64,000 nt of DNA from an uncultured Anaerolineales bacterium (GCA_964433755.1 CAYSSR010000005.1:77568-141567); one strand, 5' to 3'. Shown: positions 1,058 through 41,101, counted from the first letter of the stretch. Notes: a model not told the origin generated them from the sequence alone. Translations and numbers: made by a program.

Positions 1058-2504
1058 TCACCTGGGATACAAGATCCGCGCGTCTCAGATAGTAGGCTCC
1101 ATTCTCGTTCCGAAGTACTACAATCCAGAGATCTCGGAGCGACTACGTGCTCTGTCCACCACCCACCGCCTAGTTCCCATGGCAAGTCTGTTTGAAGATG
1201 GGGTCCTTTCATGCACCACGGGCCATGAGATTGGCAAGATGGCTTACGGGACTGGCTCAATCCCCTTTGTGCGTACCTCGGACATCTCGAATTGGGAGAT
1301 CATTACCAACCCCAAACAAGGCGTGAGCCAAGAGATCTATGATAGCTACGCCGCGAAGCAGGGCGTGCGAGCAGGCGATATCTTGATGGTTAGGGACGGA
1401 ACCTACCTCATCGGCAACTGCTGCTGGGTCACCGAGGCCGACACTAGGATGGTGTACCAGTCGCATATCTTGAAGATCAGAGTCGAGAAGCCAGCACACA
1501 TATCCCCTGAGCTCCTACTCGCTGTGCTGTCGTCACCGGTTGTCCAAGAGCAGGTCAAGGCCAAGCAGTTCACAGCGGACATCATAGACACCCTTGGCAA
1601 TCGATACCTTGAGTTGGTGCTTCCTATCCCGAAGGGCGAAGGAGTGGCAACGAGAATCCGCCGGCAGGTATCGGAAGTCGTCAACGGCAGACTGACGTTG
1701 AGAGAGCGGATTAGGAGAATCCCTCTATGGGCGGAGGGCATCATTAGTTCGCCAGACGACGAGATACCTCCGTCATCCCAAGACGATGATCAGCGGACTG
1801 GTCCCCTTGCTTTTGTGTTGCCGACCAACCAGATCGTCAACGAGATCTTCATCCCACGATACTACAGCCCCCCCATCACGGAGCGATTGCGCCAGCTCAC
1901 GGAGACCCATCAACTGGTGACTATCGCCAGCCTCTCCGAGCAAGGTATCATCGCCCTGGAGACCGGTACCGAAGTTGGCAAGATGGCGTACGGTACCGGT
2001 TCTATACCGTTCATCCGAACATCTGACATAGCGAACTGGGAACTCAAGAGTGATCCCAAGCAGACGGTGAGTGAGGAGTTGTACGAGGATCTCAAGGATA
2101 GGCAGGACGTGCGTGCAGATGACCTCCTATTGGTGCGGGATGGCACCTACTTGGTCGGGACGTCCTGCATCCTCACCGAGTACGACACGCGGATTCTCTA
2201 CTGTGGTGGGCTATACAAGATCCGCATAAGGGACAAGAGCGCTCTGGACCCCTATCTTCTCTTGGCGCTACTCAATACTCCGGTGGTGAAGGGTCAGGTG
2301 CGAGCCAAGCAGTTCACACGCGACGTGATTGACACGCTGGGGAAACGCGTGTACGAGCTCGTGCTCCCCATTCCGAGGGATGCCGAGTTGCGCCAGCAGA
2401 TCGCCACTTCGACCAGGGAGGCGGTTGTCGGGCGAGCTCAGTTGAGAGGCCGAGCAACGCGCCTGGCGCGGGAGGTTGAGGGCCTGGGCAATCCGGCATG
2501 CTAG
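1044..2504 (+). CDS. hsdS: Restriction-modification specificity subunit (HsdS-like) with two similar target-recognition halves
   Basis: Translationally coupled to the methylase (14 nt overlap). Each half has the TRD-like pattern GSIPF(V/I)RTSDI ... RDGTYL(I/V)G ... LVLPIP. The two halves are clearly homologous by eye. Confidence 0.75.
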   Translation: MNRHDHLGYKIRASQIVGSILVPKYYNPEISERLRALSTTHRLVPMASLFEDGVLSCTTGHEIGKMAYGTGSIPFVRTSDISNWEIITNPKQGVSQEIYDSYAAKQGVRAGDILMVRDGTYLIGNCCWVTEADTRMVYQSHILKIRVEKPAHISPELLLAVLSSPVVQEQVKAKQFTADIIDTLGNRYLELVLPIPKGEGVATRIRRQVSEVVNGRLTLRERIRRIPLWAEGIISSPDDEIPPSSQDDDQRTGPLAFVLPTNQIVNEIFIPRYYSPPITERLRQLTETHQLVTIASLSEQGIIALETGTEVGKMAYGTGSIPFIRTSDIANWELKSDPKQTVSEELYEDLKDRQDVRADDLLLVRDGTYLVGTSCILTEYDTRILYCGGLYKIRIRDKSALDPYLLLALLNTPVVKGQVRAKQFTRDVIDTLGKRVYELVLPIPRDAELRQQIATSTREAVVGRAQLRGRATRLAREVEGLGNPAC

Positions 2505-2697
2505 GGTGTCGATCCGGTTCGAGACTACGTTGGTTGCCGCCAAGTGTCCCTAGCTGCCCAGTGGCTCCGCTAGCACTCGTGCCTTGCGATCCTGCGTCGT
2601 TCTGTTGGGCCGGTATTACCCCAGCAAACGTGTGCGTCGACCGGGGCTACGGCTCAAGCCGGTGGTTGGCGAGACCGCGGTGCTGGCGGGAGACGGG

Positions 2698-28979: not shown

Positions 28980-29306
28980 ATGCCCGATCTCAGCTTGGCT
29001 GGACTCGGCGTTCCGCTGCTGCTGTTGGGCGGGGTCATTGTGATTGCGGTGGCCACCCTGCTGCTTCATCTGCTCTTTCCCCCGACCAGGCAGAGTGTCC
29101 GGAGAGCAAGGCAGCGGCTATGGCGCATACGCTGTCCCCTTTGTGACCAGAGCCTGCATCTGACGGAGATCGGCGGTGTAAGTGTGCTAATCTGCCGCTG
29201 TTGCCAGGGAGTGTGGCTGAGCCGCGACAAGCTGGAACAGATCCTCAGACTAGATCGGCAGTCCATCACTGCAGGCACATCGATGTTATGGAAGGTGCAA
29301 CGGTGA
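28980..29306 (+). CDS. Small membrane protein with zinc-ribbon (zf-TFIIB-like) domain
   Basis: GGAGGGAGG RBS, an N-terminal TM helix, then CPLC ... 17 aa ... CRCCQGVWL, the pattern of the TFIIB-type zinc ribbon found in small bacterial proteins. Confidence 0.6.
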   Translation: MPDLSLAGLGVPLLLLGGVIVIAVATLLLHLLFPPTRQSVRRARQRLWRIRCPLCDQSLHLTEIGGVSVLICRCCQGVWLSRDKLEQILRLDRQSITAGTSMLWKVQR

Positions 29307-31789
29307 ATCAGGAACTTGACTTGGCTCCCAAACGGGAGCCCTTTCGTGGCTTGACCGCGGCTCAAGTCGTGGAACAGCGGCGCGAGTATGGAGAGAACGT
29401 TCTTCCGTCCACCAAAGGACAGTCCGTTTGGTCCATCCTTTTCTGCCAGTTCAAGAGCCCTCTCGTGTACATCATCCTAATAGCAGCTGCCATCTCCTTC
29501 GTGGCCGGAGAGTACAGTGACTTTGGCATCATCATGGCCGTCGTTGTCACAGATGTCGTCCTGGGCTTTGTCCAGGAATATCAGGCGCACCGAACCTATA
29601 CGGCTCTAAAGGGTCTGCTGAAGCCAACGACAACTGTGATCCGTGATGGTGCCCGCGAGGAGATCGACATCCGCGAACTGGTCCCTGGCGATCTGGTTGT
29701 GCTCAGCGCCGGGGAGCACGTGCCGGGAGACGGCGAGATCGTCGAGAGCACGAAACTGGCCGCGGATGAAGCCATCCTGACGGGGGAGAGCGAGCCGGTC
29801 AACAAGGGCACAGCGTCCGATCAGAACCAGGTCTACATGGGCACAACCATAGTGACGGGACGCGGATTGGCGTGCATGACCCACACCGGGTCCGACACGT
29901 CACTGGGGCAGATTGCCTCCAGCTTGCAGGAACACCCGCAGGAAGAGACTCCTCTGCAGGTGCGGCTACGCACATTCAGCCGCACTCTGACGTACCTTGT
30001 CTCCGGCATCACCCTGGTCATCCTGGTCACCGGGCTGATCACGGGCCGCCCCTTCCTGGATATGCTGCGCGTATCCATCGTCCTGGCCATCGCTGCCGTG
30101 CCGGAGGGCTTGTTGATTGCCGTGACCGTAATCCTGGTCCTGGGGATGCGCAAAATCCTGAGGCGCAACGGACTGGTCAAGAAGCTGCTGGCCGTCGAGA
30201 CCCTGGGTTCCGTGACCGTGATTTGCACCGATAAGACCGGAACGCTGACCGAAGGCCGCATGCGGGTTACGCGAAGCAACTCTCTCGACCGCGAGCGTAC
30301 CCTGGAGACCATGGCCCTGTGCAACAACCTGGAAGGGCCGGTGGACATCGCCCTGTGGGAATACGCCAGGGCACAACTTGCCAGAGACCCGCAAGACCTG
30401 GCGGATGCTTCTGAACGCTTGGCGGAGGATCTCTTTACGAGTGAAACCAAGTTTATGATCACCGCGACCCGCTTCAACGGTGATGCCTACGACTACTTGA
30501 AAGGTGCGCCAGAGATAGTGCTCGGGATGTGCCAGACTGACCCATCCGAGCGCGACGACATTCTGTCGCAGGTGGATGAGTGGGCCAGCGAGGGATTACG
30601 GTTGCTTGGCCTTGCCTACCGCCCGCATGGACCGCTCGGAGATCGTGGTGGCTACACCTGGATCGGACTGATCGGCATGGAGGATCCCATCCGTGAAGGT
30701 GTCACAGAGGCCGTACGGGTCGCACAGCGAGCGGGGATCAAGGTCAAAATGATCACAGGCGATTATCGTCGCACGGCTGAGCGGATCGCCGCCAACGTCG
30801 GTCTCCTTGTAGATGAGGGTCAGATCGTGGAAGGGCACGAGCTGACCGCATTGGACGATGGGCAACTGATGGATCTGGTGGGCAAGACGGCTGTCTTCGC
30901 TCGGATTCGCCCGCAGGACAAGCTGCGTATCGTCCGTGCGTTGCAGGCACGTGGTGAGATCACAGCTATGATCGGCGATGGAGTGAACGATGCTCCTGCT
31001 CTACAGCGGGCAGACATCGGCGTTGTCGTCGGCAGCGCCACCGACGTCGCCAAGGAGACCGCCGACCTGATCCTACTCGACAACAACTTCCGAACGATAG
31101 TGGCAGCCGTGGAAGAGGGGCGAGTGATCTTTGAGAACATCCGTAAGGTGGTGGGGTACGTCCTTTCCAACTCCTTTGCCGAGGTCTTGGCGATCTTTGG
31201 GGCGATGTTGCTGGGTTGGCCCGCGCCGCTGCTGGTGGCGCAGATCCTGTGGATTCACCTGATCTGCGACGGTCCGGCCGACATCATGCTGGGCTTCGAG
31301 CCAAGAGAGTATGGCATCATGGACGAGAAACCCAAGTCGCTCCACGAACCGATCTTGACGCAACTGGGGCTGTCGCTCATCGGCGTGATCAGCGTCAGCA
31401 GCTCCATCGCGGCCCTGTTCCTGTTCGGTTACTTCCTCACGGCGCAGGGCGATCCAGCTCTGGGTAGGAGCTACGTGTTTGCCACCTTTGCGGTCAACTC
31501 CATGATCTACATCTTTGGCTACCGGAGCATGCGTCGATCCATCCTCCACAGTGGCAGCCCGATGCGGAACAAGCCTCTGGTTGTCGCGGTGGTAGCCGGC
31601 TTGCTCTTGGCCTTTGTGCCTTTCGTGGTGCCTACGCTCCGCAACTTGCTGGAGCTGGCACCTCTCACCTGGGGGCAGTGGGGAGTGGTGTTTGCCATTG
31701 CCTTCTTGCTGCTCGGCGTCGTCGAGATTGGCAAGTTCGTCACCAACCAGCGTCACCCCGCGACGAGCCCCGTGCTCGGGGAGTCATAG
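29288..31789 (+). CDS. P-type cation-transporting ATPase (P2-type, Ca2+/Mg2+-like)
   Basis: Phosphorylation motif CTDKTGTLT, TGES, PEGL in TM4, hinge GDGVNDAPAL. An alternative GTG start at 29303 overlaps the upstream stop. Confidence 0.92.
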   Translation: MEGATVNQELDLAPKREPFRGLTAAQVVEQRREYGENVLPSTKGQSVWSILFCQFKSPLVYIILIAAAISFVAGEYSDFGIIMAVVVTDVVLGFVQEYQAHRTYTALKGLLKPTTTVIRDGAREEIDIRELVPGDLVVLSAGEHVPGDGEIVESTKLAADEAILTGESEPVNKGTASDQNQVYMGTTIVTGRGLACMTHTGSDTSLGQIASSLQEHPQEETPLQVRLRTFSRTLTYLVSGITLVILVTGLITGRPFLDMLRVSIVLAIAAVPEGLLIAVTVILVLGMRKILRRNGLVKKLLAVETLGSVTVICTDKTGTLTEGRMRVTRSNSLDRERTLETMALCNNLEGPVDIALWEYARAQLARDPQDLADASERLAEDLFTSETKFMITATRFNGDAYDYLKGAPEIVLGMCQTDPSERDDILSQVDEWASEGLRLLGLAYRPHGPLGDRGGYTWIGLIGMEDPIREGVTEAVRVAQRAGIKVKMITGDYRRTAERIAANVGLLVDEGQIVEGHELTALDDGQLMDLVGKTAVFARIRPQDKLRIVRALQARGEITAMIGDGVNDAPALQRADIGVVVGSATDVAKETADLILLDNNFRTIVAAVEEGRVIFENIRKVVGYVLSNSFAEVLAIFGAMLLGWPAPLLVAQILWIHLICDGPADIMLGFEPREYGIMDEKPKSLHEPILTQLGLSLIGVISVSSSIAALFLFGYFLTAQGDPALGRSYVFATFAVNSMIYIFGYRSMRRSILHSGSPMRNKPLVVAVVAGLLLAFVPFVVPTLRNLLELAPLTWGQWGVVFAIAFLLLGVVEIGKFVTNQRHPATSPVLGES

Positions 31790-31940: not shown

Positions 31941-32951
31941 TCACATCATGATGGGGATGGCTCTTCCGCAGGCCGGGCACGCGGTGTCCCTTAGCCGGTT
32001 CTGGAGGACGGTTAGTCCCCGCCTCTCCACCAGCAGCTCACCACAGCCGGGGCAATAGGTGTTCTCCAGCCGATGCCCGGCCACGTTGCCCAGGTACACG
32101 AACTCCAGGCCCTCTTCCTGGCCTATCTGCCACGCGTTTTCCAGCGCGCTCAGGGGTGTGGGCGGAGCGTGGAAGCGATACGCCGGGTAGTAGCCGCTGA
32201 CGTGCCAGGGCGTCTCCCGCCCCAACTCCTCGTGGATGCGTCTGGCGATTCTCCGTAGGGTTTCCTCTCGATGGTTCACACCGGGGATGACCAAGGTGGT
32301 GATCTCCAGGTGTACTCCGCGCTCCTTGGCATAGCGGCAATTGCGCCATACCTTCTCCACATCAATGCCACGGCAATGTCTTCGCACGGCCTCTGCGTCT
32401 CCCTTGATATCCACATTCATGGCGTCCAGCCCAGCGGCGGTGAGTGCGTCCAACGCCGGGGTGGTCATGTAGCCGTTGGTGACGTAGGTGTTGTACAGAC
32501 CCTGCTCCCGCGCCAGGCGGAACACCTCCAGCGACCACTCGAGCGATAGTGTGGGCTCGTTGAGGCTGATCGATGTGCCCTGACAATTGCGCGCCAGGGC
32601 TATCTGCACGAACTCGTGAGGCGAGATGTGTTTGGAAGGGCGGGGACCTGATTTGGAGATGTCCCAGTTCTGGCACCAGGGACAGCCGAAGTTGCAGCCC
32701 CAGCTCCCAGCCGTCAGGGCCACGCTGCCAGGGTAGAAATGGTGCAGGGGCTTCTTCTCGATGGGGTTGGCCGACAGGGAGGAGACCTGTCCGTAGGTGA
32801 GGGTGACCAACACACCGTCTCTATTGGTACGCGTGCGGCACCAGCCGAAAGCCCCCTCGGAGAGCAGACAGCGCCGCTCGCAGGTCAAGCAGCGGACTTT
32901 GTCACCGACCTGTTCCTGCAAGAGCGCTTCGCGGACGGATGGATCGGTCAT
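31941..32951 (-). CDS. Radical SAM enzyme, AmmeMemoRadiSam-system type (PflA-like activase family)
   Basis: Cluster motif CNFGCPWCQNW, an N-terminal CLTCERRC ... C zinc-ribbon-like segment, a C-terminal CPGCG ... CPACG, and a length of 336 aa. Confidence 0.8.
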   Translation of the reverse strand: MTDPSVREALLQEQVGDKVRCLTCERRCLLSEGAFGWCRTRTNRDGVLVTLTYGQVSSLSANPIEKKPLHHFYPGSVALTAGSWGCNFGCPWCQNWDISKSGPRPSKHISPHEFVQIALARNCQGTSISLNEPTLSLEWSLEVFRLAREQGLYNTYVTNGYMTTPALDALTAAGLDAMNVDIKGDAEAVRRHCRGIDVEKVWRNCRYAKERGVHLEITTLVIPGVNHREETLRRIARRIHEELGRETPWHVSGYYPAYRFHAPPTPLSALENAWQIGQEEGLEFVYLGNVAGHRLENTYCPGCGELLVERRGLTVLQNRLRDTACPACGRAIPIMM

Positions 32952-33005: not shown

Positions 33006-33611
33006 TCAGGCCGCGAGAGAACCGACCCAGCTTCTGCGCTGCTGCGACCACGGAGAGCAGGCCACGTCCACGAGCCTGAAGCTGTTGACGTCCGGAAACG
33101 AAGCGGCGCACCAGAATGTGGCCCATGGGGACAGTGACTGCGACGGGTCAACGGAGACCTCCTCCGGCTCAGCGGTGCCTGTCGGACTCAATGGTGTCCC
33201 GGAGGTGACGGTGAGCGTAGCCGTGAGCACAGGCGTCGGTGTAACCGTAGCTGAGATGACAGTGGTCGTGGTCAGGCCGTCCGTGCCGGTGATGACGACG
33301 GTGACGTTGACGCTCTCCGGCGTCGGAGTCAAGGTAGGTATGGGCCGCTGGGTCGGAGTGGGAGGCAGCGTGGCCGTAGGGGTGGCAGTGTCTCTGGGTG
33401 TCGCCACCGTGGTCGGGATCGAGGTTGGAGTGGACGTGGACGTGGGCGGGGTCTCCATGGCCACTTGGGGGACCAGGCGGGAGCGAAGAAGGTAGCTGCT
33501 GATGCCCAGGCAGTACAGAAGTAGCGCCAGGAGGGTGAAAACAGCGAGCAGGCTATAGAGTCGCTTCTCTGGGACGGCAAGCTGTCTGTAATGGCGGAAG
33601 AGACTTCTCAT
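33006..33611 (-). CDS. Membrane-anchored Thr/Pro-rich protein
   Basis: ATG at 33611, a single TM helix (LYSLLAVFTLLALLLYCLGISSYLL), then low-complexity TPT repeats. Confidence 0.55.
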   Translation of the reverse strand: MRSLFRHYRQLAVPEKRLYSLLAVFTLLALLLYCLGISSYLLRSRLVPQVAMETPPTSTSTPTSIPTTVATPRDTATPTATLPPTPTQRPIPTLTPTPESVNVTVVITGTDGLTTTTVISATVTPTPVLTATLTVTSGTPLSPTGTAEPEEVSVDPSQSLSPWATFWCAASFPDVNSFRLVDVACSPWSQQRRSWVGSLAA

Positions 33612-33670
33612 GGGCAAGACCGTCTCTGATCAGGGCTGGCAATCGGCATCATCGTCCGCAACCTCCGCGT

Positions 33671-34141
33671 CTAGCCGTCCCTCTCTCCGCTGGGGGTACC
33701 GGTGCTCGTCGGGGTGGCGGACTGGGTGGCCGTGGGCGTGTGCGTGGCAGTCTGCGATGGTGTGCTGCTCGGCGTCGGTGAAGGCGTGTATGTGGGAGTG
33801 TCGGTGGCCGTGGCCGTCGGCGTGGAGGTGAGAGTTGCCGTAAAGGTAGCGGTCTCGGTTGGTGTCTCCGTGGGCGTGGCAGTGGCTGTGCTCGTCGGTG
33901 TCGCGGTGGCGGTGGACGTTGGTATCTCAGTCGCGGTAGCGGTCCACGTCGGCGTGTGAGTGGCGGTCTCGGTTGGCGTGGCGGTGGACGTCTCAGTAGG
34001 AGTCGGCGTGAATCGGGGGGGTGCCATAGCCAGAGCGACGAAGCCCAGAACGTAGCAAGGCACGCTCACGCAGATGACGGCGAAGAGGAGGCCGTAGGTT
34101 ACCTTCCTTCGCTGTGGGAGACTGCTGTACCACTCACTCAC
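33671..34141 (-). CDS. Membrane-anchored Thr/Pro-rich protein
   Basis: GTG start, a single TM helix ([23 protein letters not shown]), then TPTxTATxTPT low-complexity sequence to the C-terminus. Confidence 0.5.
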
Positions 34142-34402: not shown

Positions 34403-35170
34403 TCAACCGACGGAGATCAGATCTCGCACCCGGTGGTTCAGGCTGGCGAAACGCTCGTAGTAGTAGATCTCCGTGTCGCGTGGGCGCGGCAGGTCTACGT
34501 CGACAACGGCCTGAATGTGGCCGGGGCGGGGACTCATGACCAGTACCCTATCGGCCAGGAAGATGGCCTCCTGGATGGTGTGAGTCACCATGAGCACGGT
34601 CTTGGCGGTGGCATGCCAGATGCGGAGCAACTCCAGATTCATCTGATTGCGGGTAATGGCGTCGAGGGAGCCGAAGGGCTCGTCCATGAGCAGAATCGAC
34701 GGTTCGTAGACCAGGGCCCTGGCGATAGCAACCCGCTGTTGCATCCCGCCCGACAACTCATGAGGATGGAGGTTCTCGAATCCGAGCAAGCCCACCAGCC
34801 CCAGCAACTCCATGGCTCGCTTGCGATGGTCATTGCCGTTCCTGCCCTGTACCTCCAAGGGTAGGGTGACGTTCTGGAGAACGGTGCGCCACGGCATCAG
34901 GGTGGGGTTCTGGAAGACGAATCCGATCTCGCGGCGTGGCTCGGACAGGGTCCGGCCATCGATCCGGACCCTGCCCTTCTCAGCTTGTAACAGGCCGCCC
35001 AGGATGCGCAGAAGCGTCGTCTTCCCGCAGCCGGAAGGTCCAACCAGGCTGACGAACTCTCCCTCGAAGATCTCCAGAGAGACGTCGTGGAGCGCCTTGA
35101 CTTCCCCATCGCGACTGGGGAACGTCTTGCGTATTCCTTCGGCTGCAAGCACAGGTCGCGGCACGGTCAC
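34403..35170 (-). CDS. ABC transporter ATP-binding protein (NitT/TauT family)
   Basis: Walker A GPSGCGKTT, signature LSGGMQQRVAIARAL, Walker B LLMDEPF. GTG start abutting the upstream stop. Confidence 0.92.
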   Translation of the reverse strand: MTVPRPVLAAEGIRKTFPSRDGEVKALHDVSLEIFEGEFVSLVGPSGCGKTTLLRILGGLLQAEKGRVRIDGRTLSEPRREIGFVFQNPTLMPWRTVLQNVTLPLEVQGRNGNDHRKRAMELLGLVGLLGFENLHPHELSGGMQQRVAIARALVYEPSILLMDEPFGSLDAITRNQMNLELLRIWHATAKTVLMVTHTIQEAIFLADRVLVMSPRPGHIQAVVDVDLPRPRDTEIYYYERFASLNHRVRDLISVG

Positions 35171-36157
35171 CTACGGCTCCACGATGAAATCGTTGGTGTA
35201 CATCTTCTCGACGTCAGACTCCGTTTCCGTCAGACCTGCCTGGAACATGAAGTCCTCCGACATCTCCCAGGCCGATGGATCGCAAAGGCCTAGTGTCTCG
35301 CTGTCCCAGAACTTGATGGATTCTTCGAGGACGGCCATTTGAGTGTCCCTGTTCTCGCCGCCTGCCTCCGGCACGTACTCGAGGCAGATCTCGAAGGCTT
35401 CCTCGGGAGCATCTATCGTGTCGCGTAGTCCGCGCAGCGCCGCTCGCACGAGGCTGGCAACCAATTCCGGCCGCTCCGCAATGGTCTTCTCGTTGGTGAT
35501 GATGCCGTTGGAGACCAGATTCATGTAGTCGGCCACGTAGAGGATGTTCAAATCGTATCCAGCCTGGCGTAGTTGCACCGGCTCGTTGGCTCCGTAGACG
35601 ACGGCGGCATCTATACGACCCTCCGTAAGGCTGGCCACTTGAGTGTAGCCGATGAACTCGATCGGTATTTCTTCCTCGTCGATGCCTGTGGCGTACAGAA
35701 GGGCTAGCCAGCCGTTGTAGCTCGCTCCCGGCGCGGGGATGCCCACAGAGTGGCCGATGAGGTCGGCTGGCTCCTCCAAAGGCAGGTCCTCGAGGGAGAC
35801 GACGGCGACGGGGAACCTGTGGAAATAGGTCATCACGTACACCACTGGGAGACCCTGACTCCGCGCGAGGATCACCTGGTCGCCGCTACCTACGGCAAAC
35901 TGGAGGGCATCGGCACCGACCAGGTTGAGTAGGTCCGTCTCCATGCCGTAGTCGAACTCGATCTCCAGGTTCTCGTCGGCGAAGTAGCCCTTGTTGAGGG
36001 CCACATAGAAGGGCGTGAACTGGACGTTGGGGATGTACCCCATAGCCAGGGTGACCTTCTCGGGTGGAGATGTGGGTGTGGGAGCGGCGCCACCACTGCT
36101 ACAGCCGCTCAGGGCCAAGCCGTACAGCGCAAGCATGATCAAGACAAGCTTCTTCAA
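35171..36157 (-). CDS. ABC transporter substrate-binding lipoprotein (NMT1/THI5-SsuA-like)
   Basis: TTG start after GGAGAG, lipobox LALSGC, and the block TLAMGYIPNVQFTPFYVA typical of NMT1/SsuA/ThiY-type binding proteins. Confidence 0.85.
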   Translation of the reverse strand: MKKLVLIMLALYGLALSGCSSGGAAPTPTSPPEKVTLAMGYIPNVQFTPFYVALNKGYFADENLEIEFDYGMETDLLNLVGADALQFAVGSGDQVILARSQGLPVVYVMTYFHRFPVAVVSLEDLPLEEPADLIGHSVGIPAPGASYNGWLALLYATGIDEEEIPIEFIGYTQVASLTEGRIDAAVVYGANEPVQLRQAGYDLNILYVADYMNLVSNGIITNEKTIAERPELVASLVRAALRGLRDTIDAPEEAFEICLEYVPEAGGENRDTQMAVLEESIKFWDSETLGLCDPSAWEMSEDFMFQAGLTETESDVEKMYTNDFIVEP

Positions 36158-36179: not shown

Positions 36180-37013
36180 TTACTTGACCCGGCGCCACGA
36201 CAGGAGCCGGCTCTCGAGCAGAACCACACAACCGTACAGACTCAACGCGATGACCACGAGCGCAAACAGAGCTACGAACATCATGGGGGTGTCGAAGAGG
36301 CCCCTGGAGAGGTTGACTAGGAAGCCAAGACCCTCATCCGCCGCCACGAACTCGCCGACCACCGCGCCTATGACCGACAGGGTGACGCCTATCTTGAGGC
36401 CGCCCAGCAGCACGGGGAGGGCGGCAGGGATCTCCAACATGGTGATCATCTGCCGCCGCGTAGCTCCATACGAACGCATCAGATCGACCAGGTTCTCGTC
36501 CACCGAACGGAGGCCGACGATGGTGTTGATGAGCACAGGGAAGAAGACGGTCAGCGCGCAGACGATGACCTTGGAGAGAGTGCCAAAGCCAAACCATATC
36601 ACCAGCAGTGGGGCCAAAGCGACGATGGGTATAGACTGAGAGGCCACGATGTAGGGCGAGATCAGCCGCTCGATGGGCTTAGACTTGGCGAAGACGTACC
36701 CCAGCGAGGTGGCTACCGAGAGCCCGAGCGCCAGTCCGACAAGCACCTCTCTCACAGTTGCCCAGGCGTGATGGAGGAGCGTGCCGTCGGAGAGGGCTAC
36801 GAGAAACTTCCGGTACACGACCATGGGTGCAGGAAGGAGGAAGGTAGGGTACGAGCCCAAGGTGACCAGGAGTTGCCACAGGCCCAGGAAGATGAGGAGG
36901 GCCGGCGGCGCCAGCAGATACGCGTGGTACCTCTCAGGGACTCTGGCCAAGGTCCTCCTCACCGCTCGAGTGCCCCTGGCGAGCACCCCGGCCGTGGCTG
37001 GCGAATCGGCCAT
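36180..37013 (-). CDS. ABC transporter permease (NitT/TauT family)
   Basis: Six TM segments and an EAA-like loop (DLMRSYGATRRQMITMLEIPAALP). The start at ATG 37013 is uncertain. Confidence 0.85.
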   Translation of the reverse strand: MADSPATAGVLARGTRAVRRTLARVPERYHAYLLAPPALLIFLGLWQLLVTLGSYPTFLLPAPMVVYRKFLVALSDGTLLHHAWATVREVLVGLALGLSVATSLGYVFAKSKPIERLISPYIVASQSIPIVALAPLLVIWFGFGTLSKVIVCALTVFFPVLINTIVGLRSVDENLVDLMRSYGATRRQMITMLEIPAALPVLLGGLKIGVTLSVIGAVVGEFVAADEGLGFLVNLSRGLFDTPMMFVALFALVVIALSLYGCVVLLESRLLSWRRVK

Positions 37014-37049
37014 CTCTCGCGATGGTTCTATGGTGTCGGTTCTCACGTT

Positions 37050-37082
37050 AAACAAAAGCCCCGAAGGTTGTGCCTTCGGGAC
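37050..37082 (-). terminator. Intrinsic terminator at the 3' end of the structured leader RNA
   Basis: On the minus strand: a 10 bp stem gucccgaagg / ccuucggggc with loop cacaa, followed by UUUUGUUU. It lies 37 nt upstream of the permease ATG. Confidence 0.75.
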
Positions 37083-37299
37083 AGTCTCTCGCAGAAACAG
37101 GGAAAACTCCACGTTTCCCGGCCTGCTAACCTTCTCCCGTCCGGACTATACCGTCGGCCCTGGCTTCTCACCAGATCTGCTTTGCAGCTCGCGGGCTCGG
37201 CACCAGCCAATGGTGCCACACCGCCGATCGGGAATTGGCCTCCAAAGGAGACCTCACCCTGCCCCGAAGGTTTTGCTTATTCGCTATTCTAAGCTACCA
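37050..37299 (-). ncRNA. Unclassified structured RNA (candidate riboswitch or leader, or stand-alone sRNA) of about 250 nt
   Basis: Bounded by a consensus promoter and an intrinsic terminator, with no AUG inside. Several GC-rich hairpins are present (GGUCUCC-UUU-GGAGGCC, GGCACC-7nt-GGUGCC, GGGAAA-8nt-UUUCCC). The 5' segment CCUUCGGGG can pair with the 5' arm of the terminator, giving an antiterminator geometry. Confidence 0.55.
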
Positions 37300-38043
37300 A
37301 ATATGAGTATACGCAAGTTGGGCATTTTTGTCAAGTGCTGGCCCTACAGAGAACACCGGCCCGTCCTTGCACACCAACAGGCCGTTCCTCTCGCAAGAGC
37401 CGCACACGCCCATCCCGCATCTCATGTACGCCTCCTTGCTCAGTTGGCCCGGTATGCCATGCTGCTGGCAGAGGCGTTCCAGCCTATCCAGCATGCCCTC
37501 TGGTCCGCACCCGTAGAGTACGTCGAAGTCTTCTTGGGCCAGCAGTGTCTCTGCAACGTCGGTACAGACTCCACCATGTCCGGCGGAGCAGTCCTCCGTG
37601 ACCAGGATAGTCTCACACCCGGCCTGGGCCAGACGGTCTTCGAAGAACAGATCGCCCTTGGTCCCGGCGCCGATGACAGCTACCTTGCGCCGGGCCTCTG
37701 TGGCTCTGGCAGCGAGGAAGGCCAGGGGCGCGACCCCGTAGCCCCCTCCCGCCAGAAGCATCCGGTCGCCGACGAGGTCGAAGCCGCGACCCAGAGGACC
37801 ACGGAGCCACAGGTGGTCTCCGGCCTCGAGCTCGTGCAGCCGGCTGCTGAAGGGACCCACGCTGGCTACAGTCAGGGTGACGGGATCGTCGTCGACCAGA
37901 CTGAAAGGCTTCTCGTCGAACCCGGGCAGCCAGACCAAGACGAACTGTCCTGGCTCGGCCGGGAGCGTTCCCTCCAAGGTTAACAGCTTGACGGTTGGGG
38001 TGAGCTTGGCTGTGTAGACGAGTTTCAGTCGCTGTGGGAGCAT
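37294..38043 (-). CDS. pyrK: Dihydroorotate dehydrogenase electron-transfer subunit (PyrK-like, FAD/2Fe-2S)
   Basis: Ferredoxin-reductase-like fold motifs (GQFV ... PFS, GGGYGVAPL) and a C-terminal cluster motif MRCGMGVCGSC. ATG at 38043. Confidence 0.8.
   Translation of the reverse strand: MLPQRLKLVYTAKLTPTVKLLTLEGTLPAEPGQFVLVWLPGFDEKPFSLVDDDPVTLTVASVGPFSSRLHELEAGDHLWLRGPLGRGFDLVGDRMLLAGGGYGVAPLAFLAARATEARRKVAVIGAGTKGDLFFEDRLAQAGCETILVTEDCSAGHGGVCTDVAETLLAQEDFDVLYGCGPEGMLDRLERLCQQHGIPGQLSKEAYMRCGMGVCGSCERNGLLVCKDGPVFSVGPALDKNAQLAYTHIW
37306..37334 (-). promoter_or_regulatory. Consensus sigma70-like promoter inside the 3' end of pyrK, driving the structured RNA and ABC operon
   Basis: On the minus strand: TTGACA, 17 nt spacer, TATACT. 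The predicted TSS is near 37299, at the pyrK stop codon. Confidence 0.65.
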
Positions 38044-38485
38044 AGGCGGAGAACGAGACCTCCCATCGTGGTCTTTTCTCTCGCGGCAGATTATAGGCGA
38101 GGTGACTAGCGAAAGGAAGAGAAACAAGCTGGTAGCGACAGCCGGTGGATTTGCTGTCGCCGCTGGAGGCGTGCACTGCTGCGTCCAGGCCCAAGTTCCG
38201 CCGCGTTGCGTGGAGTGGCTAGCCAGACTGTGTCGTGGCTTCGACACCCGGCAAACCCTTGTTCTAGACGCTGAAAGCCCGTATAATCGACCTGAGTTCT
38301 GACCGAGTAACGACCTCGCCGTCGGCGTAGGCGATGGTGGAGGTTCGGGGCCACGGTGTCCGGAAGAGTACGTCTGGCGCCCGGATCTTGGATCAGCGTG
38401 CACGTTCGCTGGCCTCGAACACGTTGTTCTCCGTGGTTCTCCATCTTGAGCGGTTCCGGTTGGCTCCAGGCCACTGAGGATAGAG

Positions 38486-41101
38486 ATGACTCACCGTTGG
38501 GTTGTTCCCCTCGAAGCAGGTAGCAGCGAAGACCAGTCGCTGCTCGGCGGCAAAGGCGCTGGCCTGACGGGCATGTTGCGCCTCGGCATCCCCACGCTGC
38601 CCGGCTTCGTGATCACCAGAGAGGCATGGAGGGCGCATACCCCTGGATCGAGATCGTTGGCCCCTGATCTCTGGAAGGAGGTCAGGGAGGCCCTGGCCAT
38701 ACTCGAGGAACGGACTGGTAGTGTCCTTGGGTCTGTGACAGACCCTCTCGTGGTGTCGGTTCGGTCCAGCCCCACTGTCTCCATGCCGGGACAACTGAAG
38801 ACAGTTCTGAACGTGGGATTGACTGGCGATGTGGTAGACGATCTCGCCGAGATGTTTGGAGATCCCACCTTGGCCCGCGATGCCTTCGGCCTGCTGGTGC
38901 TGACGTACGGGGAGGCGGTTCACGACGCCACTCTTGGGGGGAGCGGGGAAGCACGACCCTCGCTCGAGGAGCTGCTGGCCGCGTTCGAGAAGCAGACGGG
39001 GGAAGAGTTCCCTCAGGACCCCTACGTGCAGTTGGAGCGGAGCATCGCGGGTGTGTTCGATTCCTGGTTTGCAGAACGCGCGAGGGAGTACCGTGCTGCT
39101 CGGGACATCGCCGACGATGAGGGCACAGCCGTCGTCGTTCAGCAGATGGCCTTTGGCAACCTGGGCCCGGGCTCGGGGAGCGGCGTGGTGTTCACGCGGA
39201 ACCCGGCGACTGGAGAGAAAGAGCTGTACGGCGAGTACCTGCCGGGCAGTCAGGGCGAACGGCTGGTGGGAGGGCACGTAACACCGGGGCGTATCTCCGT
39301 TCTGGCTGCTGAACTCCCTGCCGTCTACACCGAGCTGGAGGGCGTCTGCTCCCGACTGGAGCATCAGTACCGGGACGTGCAAGACGTGGAGTTCACCATT
39401 GAGAGGGGCACGTTGTGGATACTCCAGACCCGCACGGCCGCGCGAACGCCGCTGGCCGCGGTGAGAGCAGCGGTGGAGATGGTCGACGAGGGGCTGATCT
39501 CGCGGCGCGAGGCGTTGCTGCGCGTGGATGCGCGCTCCATCGGACAGGTCTTCGTGCCTGTGTTTGCCCACCCGTCGCCTGAGGGCCTGCTGGCCAAGGG
39601 TATCCAATCGAGCCCGGGCGCGGCCACCGGACAGGTGGTCTTCACCGCCGAAGAGGCCAAACGGTTGGCGGGCATGGGTTCGCCCGTGATTCTGGTCAAG
39701 GAAGAGACGACTGCTGACGACGCGGCGGTGATGTCTGTGGTTGAGGGTATCCTGACGCAGCGAGGAGGCGCCACGTCTCACGCTGCGGTGGTGGCGCGCG
39801 GTCTGGGCAAGCCCTGCGTGGTGGGCTGCCAGCAGATGTCCATCGACGCGTCGGGTGAAGCTGTGGTTCTCGGGGAGAAGCGCATCGCGCAGGGACACGA
39901 CGTGTCCATCGACGGGACGACAGGGAAGGTCTACAGCGGCCGGAGGGAGGTGGTGAGTCCCCGGTTCGGCGAGATAGGAGGACTGGATACCCTCCTGAGT
40001 TGGGCCGACGAGATGGCCCAGGTGCGCGTGCATGCGGATGTGTCCACGGCGGACGAGATCGAGACGGCCCTGGACTTGGGTATCGAGAACATCGGTCTGT
40101 GCCGGACGGAGGGGATGTACTACGACTCCGTCTACTTGCCCCACGTCAGGGTGGCCATGCTGGGCGATTCGCCGGCGGCCCGACAGGCGGCCTTGGAAGA
40201 GCTATGCAGTCTGCACCGGGAGGGGTTCCGAGCCCTTCTCCAGTCCTGCCAGGGCCGGCGTCTGTCGGTGCGCCTGCTCAGCGCACCGCTGGACCACTTC
40301 CTGCCAGACAGGGATAGGCTCCTGACCGAACTCGCGGAGCTGAGGGCGACTCAGAACTGGAGTGAGGAGATCGGTCAGAGGGAGAAGTTGCTGGCCGCGA
40401 TCGATTCGATGCGGCAGTCCCATCCGCAGTTCGGACTGCGTGGTATCCGCCTTTTCGCTGCTTTCCCGGAGCTCCTGGAAGCACAGATGGAGGCTCTGCT
40501 CCACGCTGCCGCGGACGTCCGAGTTGAGGGGTCGTCCGTCGACCTGGACATCCTGATACCCTTCGTATCCCAGGCGGGTGAGGTCACTCGGGCCCTGGAG
40601 GTTCTGGAAGACGTTGGGCACCGGGCGGCGGAAACGGGGAAGGCGTCCATCCCTTACCGGGTGGGCGCGGTGGTCGAAACACCAAGGGCTGCTATCGTGG
40701 CGCATGATCTGGCTTCCCTGGTCGACTTCTTGTGTTTCGATACCGACAGTCTGACTGATGCTGTGATGTGTCTGTCTCGGGAAGACGGCGGAAGGCTGCT
40801 GTCTGAGTACGCGGCGGAGCGTCTCTTGGGCCGCGACCCTTTGACGACCCTCGACGTGGAAGGGGTTGGCTCATTGGTGCGGATGGCTGTGGAGCGAGCG
40901 CGCACCGGCCATCCCGGCATCGAGCTTGGTGCGTATGGGAGCCACTGTCTGGACCCGGCTACGATGTCGCTGTTCGACGAGTGTGGGGTGGACTTCGTGG
41001 CTTGCCATCTTTCCCAACTGCTTGGCGCACGGCTGATGGCAGGCCAGCAAGCTGCCGAGCGGCAGGATGCGCAGGGACCTGCCGTTCTGGGACGAGCGTG
41101 A
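38486..41101 (+). CDS. ppdK: Pyruvate, phosphate dikinase
   Basis: N-terminal GGKGAGL, the phosphohistidine motif GGATSHAAVVARGLGKPCV, a C-terminal PEP-utilizer TIM barrel with a GLCRTE motif, and a length of about 870 aa. Confidence 0.93.
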   Translation: MTHRWVVPLEAGSSEDQSLLGGKGAGLTGMLRLGIPTLPGFVITREAWRAHTPGSRSLAPDLWKEVREALAILEERTGSVLGSVTDPLVVSVRSSPTVSMPGQLKTVLNVGLTGDVVDDLAEMFGDPTLARDAFGLLVLTYGEAVHDATLGGSGEARPSLEELLAAFEKQTGEEFPQDPYVQLERSIAGVFDSWFAERAREYRAARDIADDEGTAVVVQQMAFGNLGPGSGSGVVFTRNPATGEKELYGEYLPGSQGERLVGGHVTPGRISVLAAELPAVYTELEGVCSRLEHQYRDVQDVEFTIERGTLWILQTRTAARTPLAAVRAAVEMVDEGLISRREALLRVDARSIGQVFVPVFAHPSPEGLLAKGIQSSPGAATGQVVFTAEEAKRLAGMGSPVILVKEETTADDAAVMSVVEGILTQRGGATSHAAVVARGLGKPCVVGCQQMSIDASGEAVVLGEKRIAQGHDVSIDGTTGKVYSGRREVVSPRFGEIGGLDTLLSWADEMAQVRVHADVSTADEIETALDLGIENIGLCRTEGMYYDSVYLPHVRVAMLGDSPAARQAALEELCSLHREGFRALLQSCQGRRLSVRLLSAPLDHFLPDRDRLLTELAELRATQNWSEEIGQREKLLAAIDSMRQSHPQFGLRGIRLFAAFPELLEAQMEALLHAAADVRVEGSSVDLDILIPFVSQAGEVTRALEVLEDVGHRAAETGKASIPYRVGAVVETPRAAIVAHDLASLVDFLCFDTDSLTDAVMCLSREDGGRLLSEYAAERLLGRDPLTTLDVEGVGSLVRMAVERARTGHPGIELGAYGSHCLDPATMSLFDECGVDFVACHLSQLLGARLMAGQQAAERQDAQGPAVLGRA

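Follow-up and report, generated by a model that had tools for sequence, protein, structure and literature searches.

The locus described here raises the question of which RNA lies between pyrK and the permease gene of an ATP-binding cassette (ABC) transporter. It is part of a 64,000-nucleotide (nt) stretch of DNA from an uncultured Anaerolineales bacterium (GCA_964433755.1, CAYSSR010000005.1:77568-141567), referred to as the window. An earlier, sequence-only reading of this DNA had proposed an unclassified structured RNA that acts as a transcriptional riboswitch. The present analysis points with high confidence to a flavin mononucleotide (FMN) riboswitch that would use an intrinsic terminator for OFF control of ribX, ribY and ribZ, the genes of a putative riboflavin importer, in a genome of Anaerolineae-type Chloroflexota. 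All coordinates are window positions, and the leader, pyrK and the transporter genes are all on the minus strand.

Identity of the leader RNA

Judged from its sequence, the leader RNA is a canonical FMN riboswitch, real but not new. At the gathering thresholds of Rfam 15, RF00050 was the sole match in the whole 64-kb window. The match runs from 37275 to 37125 on the minus strand, covers model positions 1-138 of 138 and has a score of 92.9 bits (gathering score, 66.2), with an E-value between 3e-22 (scan of 36950-37400) and 5e-20. The FMN class had not been considered by the sequence-only reading, which had taken a confident Rfam match as the mark of a known element; its claim of an unclassified or novel RNA therefore fails. 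The same reading had seen partial resemblances to cobalamin riboswitches, to the Alu domain of signal recognition particle (SRP) RNA and to guanidine-I riboswitches, and had doubted a thiamine pyrophosphate (TPP) switch. The doubt was justified and the resemblances did not hold up: in 36950-37400 neither TPP (RF00059), cobalamin (RF00174), SRP (RF00169) nor guanidine-I/ykkC (RF00442) matched at E<=10, and across the whole window the last three gave no match at the gathering threshold. Besides FMN, the scan of 36950-37400 at E<=10 returned only three chance-level matches (His leader, the Pyrobaculum snoRNA PyrR204 and U6atac).

The elements of the leader, in order of transcription, are as follows.

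37334-37329 and 37311-37306, minus strand: sigma-70-type promoter, TTGACA, 17-nt spacer and TATACT (consensus scan)
37125..37275, minus strand: FMN riboswitch aptamer (RFN element, RF00050), helices P1 to P6 (Rfam covariance model)
37266..37272, minus strand: 5' strand of helix P1, AACCUUC (Rfam structure line; fold of the transcript to the aptamer end)
37260..37270, minus strand: predicted 5' strand of the antiterminator, CCUUCGGGGCA, overlapping the P1 5' strand and conserved nucleotides of junction J1/2 (minimum-energy fold)
37128..37134, minus strand: 3' strand of helix P1, GAAGGUU (Rfam structure line and fold), the presumed anti-antiterminator once FMN locks P1 (role by analogy)
37100..37119, minus strand: spacer hairpin GGGAAACGUGGAGUUUUCCC between aptamer and terminator, weakly terminator-like and present in all predicted folds
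37050..37083, minus strand: intrinsic terminator with 5' arm (U)GUCCCGAAGG at 37083-37073, loop CACAA, 3' arm CCUUCGGGGC at 37067-37058 and U-tract UUUUGUUU at 37057-37050

Within the aptamer, all upper-case RF00050 consensus positions of the junction blocks are matched (CUUCGGGGCAGGGUGA, CGGCGGU, AGCCCGCGAG, GGUGA, GCCGACGGUA, GUCCGGA and GGGAGAAGG). The nucleotides that contact FMN in the crystal structure, in 3F2Q numbering, are G10-G12, G32, A48, G62, G84/A85 and A99 (PMC6298564). With this numbering mapped onto the blocks by our own assignment, the G-rich positions that contact the ribityl and phosphate groups are kept. The Rfam alignment places a 21-nt insert in P2. An RNAalifold consensus of 14 homologous aptamers recovers P1-P6, with compensatory double changes at 17 of 44 pairs, mainly in P2, P3, P4 and P5. 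Of the checks that had been proposed with the sequence-only reading, the Rfam scan gave a single significant family, RF00050, and the comparison of upstream regions gave this covariation and an aptamer in every informative relative (see below). Family membership and the literature point to FMN as the ligand.

Expression platform and predicted switch

The promoter scores 11/12 against the consensus, and one such site was found where 0.1 were expected in shuffled sequences. It lies where the sequence-only reading had placed it, in the last 40 nt of pyrK (37334..37306, minus strand), 12-40 nt 5' of the point where the pyrK stop codon (37296-37294) ends. Transcription would start near 37299. The leader from 37299 to 37014 is then 286 nt long and contains no ATG, and the permease ATG follows at 37013. 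The terminator stem-loop (37082..37058) has 10 bp, of which 7 are G-C pairs, and a 5-nt loop, and is followed by TTTTGTTT, which ends at 37050, 36 nt before the permease ATG. An AUG-free leader with a 10-bp terminator shortly before the permease gene had likewise been recognized earlier.

Two features of the sequence link terminator and aptamer. The segment CCUUCGGGGCA (37270-37260) is complementary over 11 bp to UGUCCCGAAGG (37083-37073), in agreement with the earlier observation that a 5' segment pairs with the terminator's 5' arm. In addition, there are two copies of the 10-nt sequence CCUUCGGGGC, one at the 5' end of the aptamer (37270-37261) and one that forms the terminator 3' arm (37067-37058), so that the terminator 5' arm is complementary to each of them. 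This arm doubles as the 3' strand of the antiterminator.

The window leader was folded at three stages: ending with the aptamer, extended by the terminator 5' arm, and complete. The transcript that ends with the aptamer folds into six helices, with P1 formed by AACCUUC (37272-37266) and GAAGGUU (37134-37128). Once the terminator 5' arm is present, P1 is replaced by the 11-bp CCUUCGGGGCA/UGUCCCGAAGG helix, with a minimum free energy (MFE) of -98.4 kcal/mol. At full length the two arrangements are nearly equal in energy, at -103.1 kcal/mol for P1 plus terminator versus -102.1 kcal/mol for the long-range antiterminator helix. The earlier proposal thus holds in outline: a riboswitch of the transcriptional type that has a promoter of its own and in which the terminator and a long-range fold exclude each other. 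The helix then called a long-range P1 is indeed predicted, but it is the antiterminator, and the true P1 is AACCUUC/GAAGGUU. In the loci that have this terminator design, duplexes between the aptamer 5' segment and the terminator 5' arm range from -14 to -37 kcal/mol. Alternative antiterminators in which the P1 3' strand would pair with one or the other arm of the terminator were considered and rejected, as these duplexes reach only -5 to -16 kcal/mol.

The following sequence of events is proposed. The strong near-consensus promoter in the end of pyrK would fire near 37299, and the aptamer (37275-37125) would be made first and fold with its AACCUUC/GAAGGUU P1. Binding of FMN would lock P1 and the J1/2 nucleotides, leaving GUCCCGAAGG to pair with CCUUCGGGGC, so that the polymerase would stop at the U-tract (37057-37050) and no importer would be made. 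When FMN is scarce, the freshly made terminator 5' arm would invade P1 and pair with CCUUCGGGGCA as the 11-bp long-range antiterminator; the terminator 3' arm would be left single, and read-through into ribXYZ would yield a high-affinity riboflavin ABC importer. The P1 3' strand is assigned the role of anti-antiterminator by analogy with the rib-leader models of Lactococcus lactis and Bacillus subtilis (PMC8966005). From the family and the literature we infer that the decision would be under kinetic control, and the spacer hairpin at 37100..37119 may serve as a delay or pause element.

Transporter operon and its substrate

Three transporter genes follow the leader.

36180..37013, minus strand: ribX, ABC permease, 277 aa (PF00528 BPD_transp_1, 112.9 bits)
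35171..36157, minus strand: ribY, NMT1/THI5-type substrate-binding lipoprotein, 328 aa (PF09084 NMT1, 162.6 bits)
34403..35170, minus strand: ribZ, ABC ATP-binding subunit, 255 aa (PF00005 ABC_tran, 125 bits)

The start codon of ribY is probably TTG 36157, and the mechanically called open reading frame (ORF) from GTG 36229 is probably too long. AAGGAGA lies upstream of TTG 36157, and the product from this codon begins with MKKLVLIMLALYGLALSGC, a lipoprotein signal whose lipobox is LSGC. Homologues of RibY are 328-330 aa long and span 93% of the ORF from GTG 36229. The ribX stop is at 36180 and the ribY start at 36157 on the same strand, with an overlap stated as 24 nt.

The riboflavin importer RibXY was predicted from the conservation of FMN riboswitches in Chloroflexi and validated for Chloroflexus aurantiacus (PMC4418817). 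Its COG0600 permease and COG0715 binding protein belong to the sulfonate/nitrate/taurine ABC family, and the C. aurantiacus ribXY operon rescues an Escherichia coli ribB auxotroph at low riboflavin (PMC4418817). RibY binds flavins, and a linked ATPase gene, ribZ, is present in some Chloroflexi (Rodionova et al. 2014, via PMC4418817). RibXY homologues in other phyla follow ykkC, Met T-box or TPP elements (PMC4418817), which fits the earlier impression of a ThiY-like protein. The feature used to part RibXY from paralogues with other substrates is an upstream FMN riboswitch (PMC4418817). Such a riboswitch is present in the window and in all 64 informative relatives, and the window also has the genes of a COG0600-type permease (PF00528) and a COG0715/NMT1-type binding protein (PF09084) side by side and in the same orientation. 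For RibY, orthology has been set at an identity of at least 38% over at least 80% coverage to the protein of C. aurantiacus J-10-fl (PMC4418817). No named Chloroflexus record was found among the listed matches of two protein searches (the one seeded with L073, a metagenome-assembled genome of class Chloroflexia, comprising the best 120) or in the genome scan. The window RibY is 54% identical to a protein named by the Joint Genome Institute (JGI) as a putative riboflavin transport system substrate-binding protein, and 53% identical to the binding protein of L073, which has the same operon and riboswitch. The nearest NCBIfam models of ribX (SaoP, SsuC and TauC) all scored under cutoff.

Riboflavin is taken as the substrate from family and literature. 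The sequence-only reading had described a NitT/TauT transporter with an NMT1/ThiY-like protein; the NMT1 family holds, but 'RibXYZ riboflavin importer' describes the system better than a generic NitT/TauT or ThiY-like label.

Conservation among Chloroflexota

In a protein search the binding protein had thousands of relatives, and those that were named came from Anaerolineae. A scan of species-representative genomes gave 80 loci, all from Chloroflexota and all in metagenome-assembled genomes. Relatives with enough sequence upstream of the permease were taken as informative (n=64), and the aptamer was sought within 700 nt. Sixteen loci, in which identity of the binding protein ranges from 86% down to 51%, were sampled with Rfam, and 15 of them have a full-length RF00050 match upstream on the transporter strand (71.7-104.3 bits). 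Overall, 64 of the 64 informative relatives have an FMN aptamer upstream of the transporter, 60 by a two-motif regular-expression search that was run on all 80 loci and four by the covariance model. The four missed by the motif search (L049, L076, L077 and L079) all match RF00050, and the motif count is therefore an underestimate. In L043 both motifs are present and the Rfam gathering score is not reached. The permease gene is conserved directly 3' of the aptamer, and ribZ is 3' of ribY in most relatives.

Promoter and platform were compared in 61 leaders (60 relatives and the window). A promoter scoring at least 9/12 is present 8-37 nt 5' of the aptamer core in 56 of these; most are 12/12 matches of the form TTGACA-16/17-TATAAT. 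Such near-consensus promoters suggest that initiation is strong and constitutive and that the riboswitch exerts essentially all of the control. A common terminator design was found in 41/61 leaders, in which the invariant CUUCGGGG is repeated as the 3' arm and has its reverse complement in the 5' arm, with a U-tract after the stem. All 41 of these leaders go to the predicted antiterminator at the intermediate folding stage, and the terminator is present in the full-length MFE structure of 34. Promoter, aptamer and terminator design were each found again in dozens of related loci; these features go beyond chance.

The CCCCGAAG...CUUCGGGG design is missing from 20 of the 61 leaders (L017, L023, L025, L029, L040, L047, L053, L054, L057, L059-L062, L064, L066, L069, L071-L073 and L080). 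Some of these have other terminators, with a 5' arm that still contains GCCCC, and some have very short distances between aptamer and gene (33 nt in L023); some are probably under translational control. With these other platforms, expression platforms therefore turn over in the clade and the aptamer is fixed.

Several other observations were made in the relatives. L030 has a binding-protein homologue (63% identity) with neither an adjacent permease or ATPase match nor an FMN aptamer, and is possibly an orphan or else a paralogue of diverged function. Six relatives (L048, 2662-3969, plus strand; L055, 2577-3872, plus strand; L044, L049, L063 and L070) encode, between ribX and ribY and inside the FMN-riboswitch-controlled operon, a polytopic membrane protein of about 430 aa. 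These six proteins share 46-70% identity with one another, have only sub-threshold Pfam matches (GT87, 19.2 bits; PIG-U, 21.5 bits) and have no counterpart in the window. In L059 a molybdenum cofactor (Moco) riboswitch (2410-2554, minus strand) precedes the FMN riboswitch by a few hundred nt and is on the other strand, and two riboswitch-controlled units therefore diverge. In L015 a fragment of a group II intron domain (2550-2675, minus strand) lies just upstream of the FMN riboswitch.

Alternative interpretations

Several points weigh against an FMN-controlled riboflavin importer as described above. The permease and the binding protein reach no NCBIfam equivalog cutoff, the nearest models being sulfonate and taurine systems, and the best solved-structure relative of the binding protein is 3IX1 (E 5.5e-27), which binds the thiamine pyrimidine N-formyl-4-amino-5-aminomethyl-2-methylpyrimidine (FAMP); it is therefore mainly the riboswitch that points to the substrate. 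Orthology to C. aurantiacus RibY is indirect and runs through family, operon structure, riboswitch and phylum, together with the 54% match to the JGI-named protein. Finally, thermodynamic folds cannot establish kinetic behaviour, and seven of the 41 relatives with the shared design keep the predicted antiterminator in the full-length MFE structure.

The RNA could be an FMN riboswitch that acts mainly by translational or Rho-dependent control, which is very unlikely at this locus. The 20/61 leaders without the shared terminator, with their sometimes short aptamer-to-gene distances, indicate that other platforms are used in the clade, and a study on the Corynebacterium FMN riboswitch (PMC4288175) reports a role for Rho and RNase. 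The terminator of the window, however, is a textbook one, with a 10-bp stem that includes 7 G-C pairs and with a U-tract. Its 5' arm is an exact complement of the aptamer 5' segment, and the U-tract ends 36 nt 5' of the start codon, with the ribosome-binding region outside the switching helices.

There is little likelihood that the transporter imports another substrate, such as a thiamine pyrimidine or a sulfonate, with only an indirect link to FMN. The family is versatile, with homologues elsewhere behind ykkC, Met T-box and TPP elements (PMC4418817), and both the thiamine pyrimidine bound by the nearest structure and the sub-threshold NCBIfam matches to sulfonate/taurine systems lean that way. 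Against this, an FMN aptamer stands upstream in every informative locus of the clade, and the FMN-linked ribXY of Chloroflexus transports riboflavin, its RibY binding flavins (PMC4418817).

An FMN-like variant that senses riboflavin, lumichrome or another flavin instead of FMN is most improbable. Subtype 1 and 2 variants (Clostridium and Atopobium) do exist within RF00050 and are typically linked to transporters, but they swap the G's of the ribityl and phosphate contacts for A's and mostly precede efflux pumps (PMC6298564). The window RNA retains CUUCGGGGCAGGGUGA, CGGCGGU, AGCCCGCGAG, GCCGACGGUA and GUCCGGA exactly and precedes an importer of a family validated for riboflavin uptake; the described variants are ON switches, whereas the geometry in the window is that of an OFF switch.

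The chance of a new class, an SRP-like RNA or a diverged TPP, cobalamin or guanidine-I riboswitch is negligible. In its favour are the visual partial resemblances of the sequence-only reading and a ThiY-like binding protein with 3IX1 as best solved structure; against it stands an end-to-end match to the FMN model (E 3e-22), with none of RF00059, RF00174, RF00169 and RF00442 at E<=10 in 36950-37400.

Neighbouring genes

The leader is preceded by pyrK.

37294..38052, minus strand: pyrK, dihydroorotate dehydrogenase electron-transfer subunit (NCBIfam NF000796, 230.5 bits against a cutoff of 224)

This gene is the upstream neighbour and is outside the switch proper. It is next to the riboswitch only in the closest relatives (L001-L013 and L052), and the riboswitch therefore belongs with the transporter. 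Within 38052-37050 (minus strand), pyrK has no intrinsic terminator of its own, and the first one 3' of it is the riboswitch terminator at 37082-37050; transcripts that read through from pyrK would therefore carry the aptamer and face an FMN-dependent stop or extension into ribXYZ. Two further readings can be drawn up. The riboswitch terminator may double as the only intrinsic one of the flavoprotein gene pyrK, with FMN setting whether the pyrK transcript ends at 37050 or extends into ribXYZ, or the FMN-terminated product of about 250 nt, which would be abundant and driven by the near-consensus promoter, may have a second role in trans as a small RNA. Taken together, these two have only a slight chance of being correct; as stated above, pyrK adjoins the riboswitch in the closest relatives only.

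On the other side of the operon, 3' of ribZ, two ORFs (33006-33617 and 33671-34141, both on the minus strand) encode proteins with an N-terminal hydrophobic segment and, after it, long low-complexity tails rich in Thr, Pro and Ala, with TPTxTATxTPT repeats. Neither had a Pfam match, and the GC skew is strongly positive over this stretch (33006-34141). Farther beyond the 3' side of the rib operon are genes for a radical SAM protein (31941-32951, minus strand) and a P-type cation ATPase (29201-31789, plus strand). Divergent from pyrK is a gene of the pyruvate phosphate dikinase type (38486-41101, plus strand; PPDK_N, PEP-utilizers and PEP-utilizers_C). None of these last three neighbours is related to flavin metabolism.

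Comparison with known systems

The RNA is a known element in a known context, and its architecture has already been described for Chloroflexi. Beyond correct annotation it has little weight; the label should be FMN riboswitch (RF00050), with ribX, ribY and ribZ behind it. This implies an Anaerolineae-type host that would scavenge riboflavin when its FMN pool is low.

The ThiXYZ/ThiY importer of 4-amino-5-hydroxymethyl-2-methylpyrimidine (HMP) and FAMP resembles the window system in its NMT1/THI5 fold, its three-gene ABC layout and its control by a riboswitch. It differs in the riboswitch itself, which in the window is of the FMN and not the TPP class, with no RF00059 match at E<=10.

Like the B. 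subtilis ribD and L. lactis rib leaders, the window leader has a full-consensus six-helix aptamer with an intrinsic-terminator platform. In the models of those leaders a long-range antiterminator is opposed by the P1 3' arm as anti-antiterminator (PMC8966005), and in the window likewise the predicted antiterminator joins the aptamer 5' segment to the terminator 5' arm, with the P1 3' strand as putative anti-antiterminator. Unlike those leaders, the window switch governs a transporter and not a rib biosynthesis operon, its P2 and P3 have lineage-specific extensions and its host is a high-GC member of the Chloroflexota. These differences are all within the known range of the family.

A close parallel is the RibXY(Z) system of Chloroflexi (Caur_0816-0817 in C. 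aurantiacus; Sun et al. 2013, Rodionova et al. 2014, Gutierrez-Preciado et al. 2015), which likewise has a COG0600-type permease and a COG0715/NMT1 protein, co-transcribed behind an FMN riboswitch, with ribZ linked. The window locus belongs to the Anaerolineae branch and not to Chloroflexia, and the two are likened by family and operon layout. The update to the literature is modest: an aptamer in all 64 informative Chloroflexota relatives, a near-perfect consensus promoter in most, a terminator design shared by about two-thirds of the leaders (41/61), and ribZ linked in most loci of this data set, as against 'a few' species in the 2015 paper (PMC4418817).

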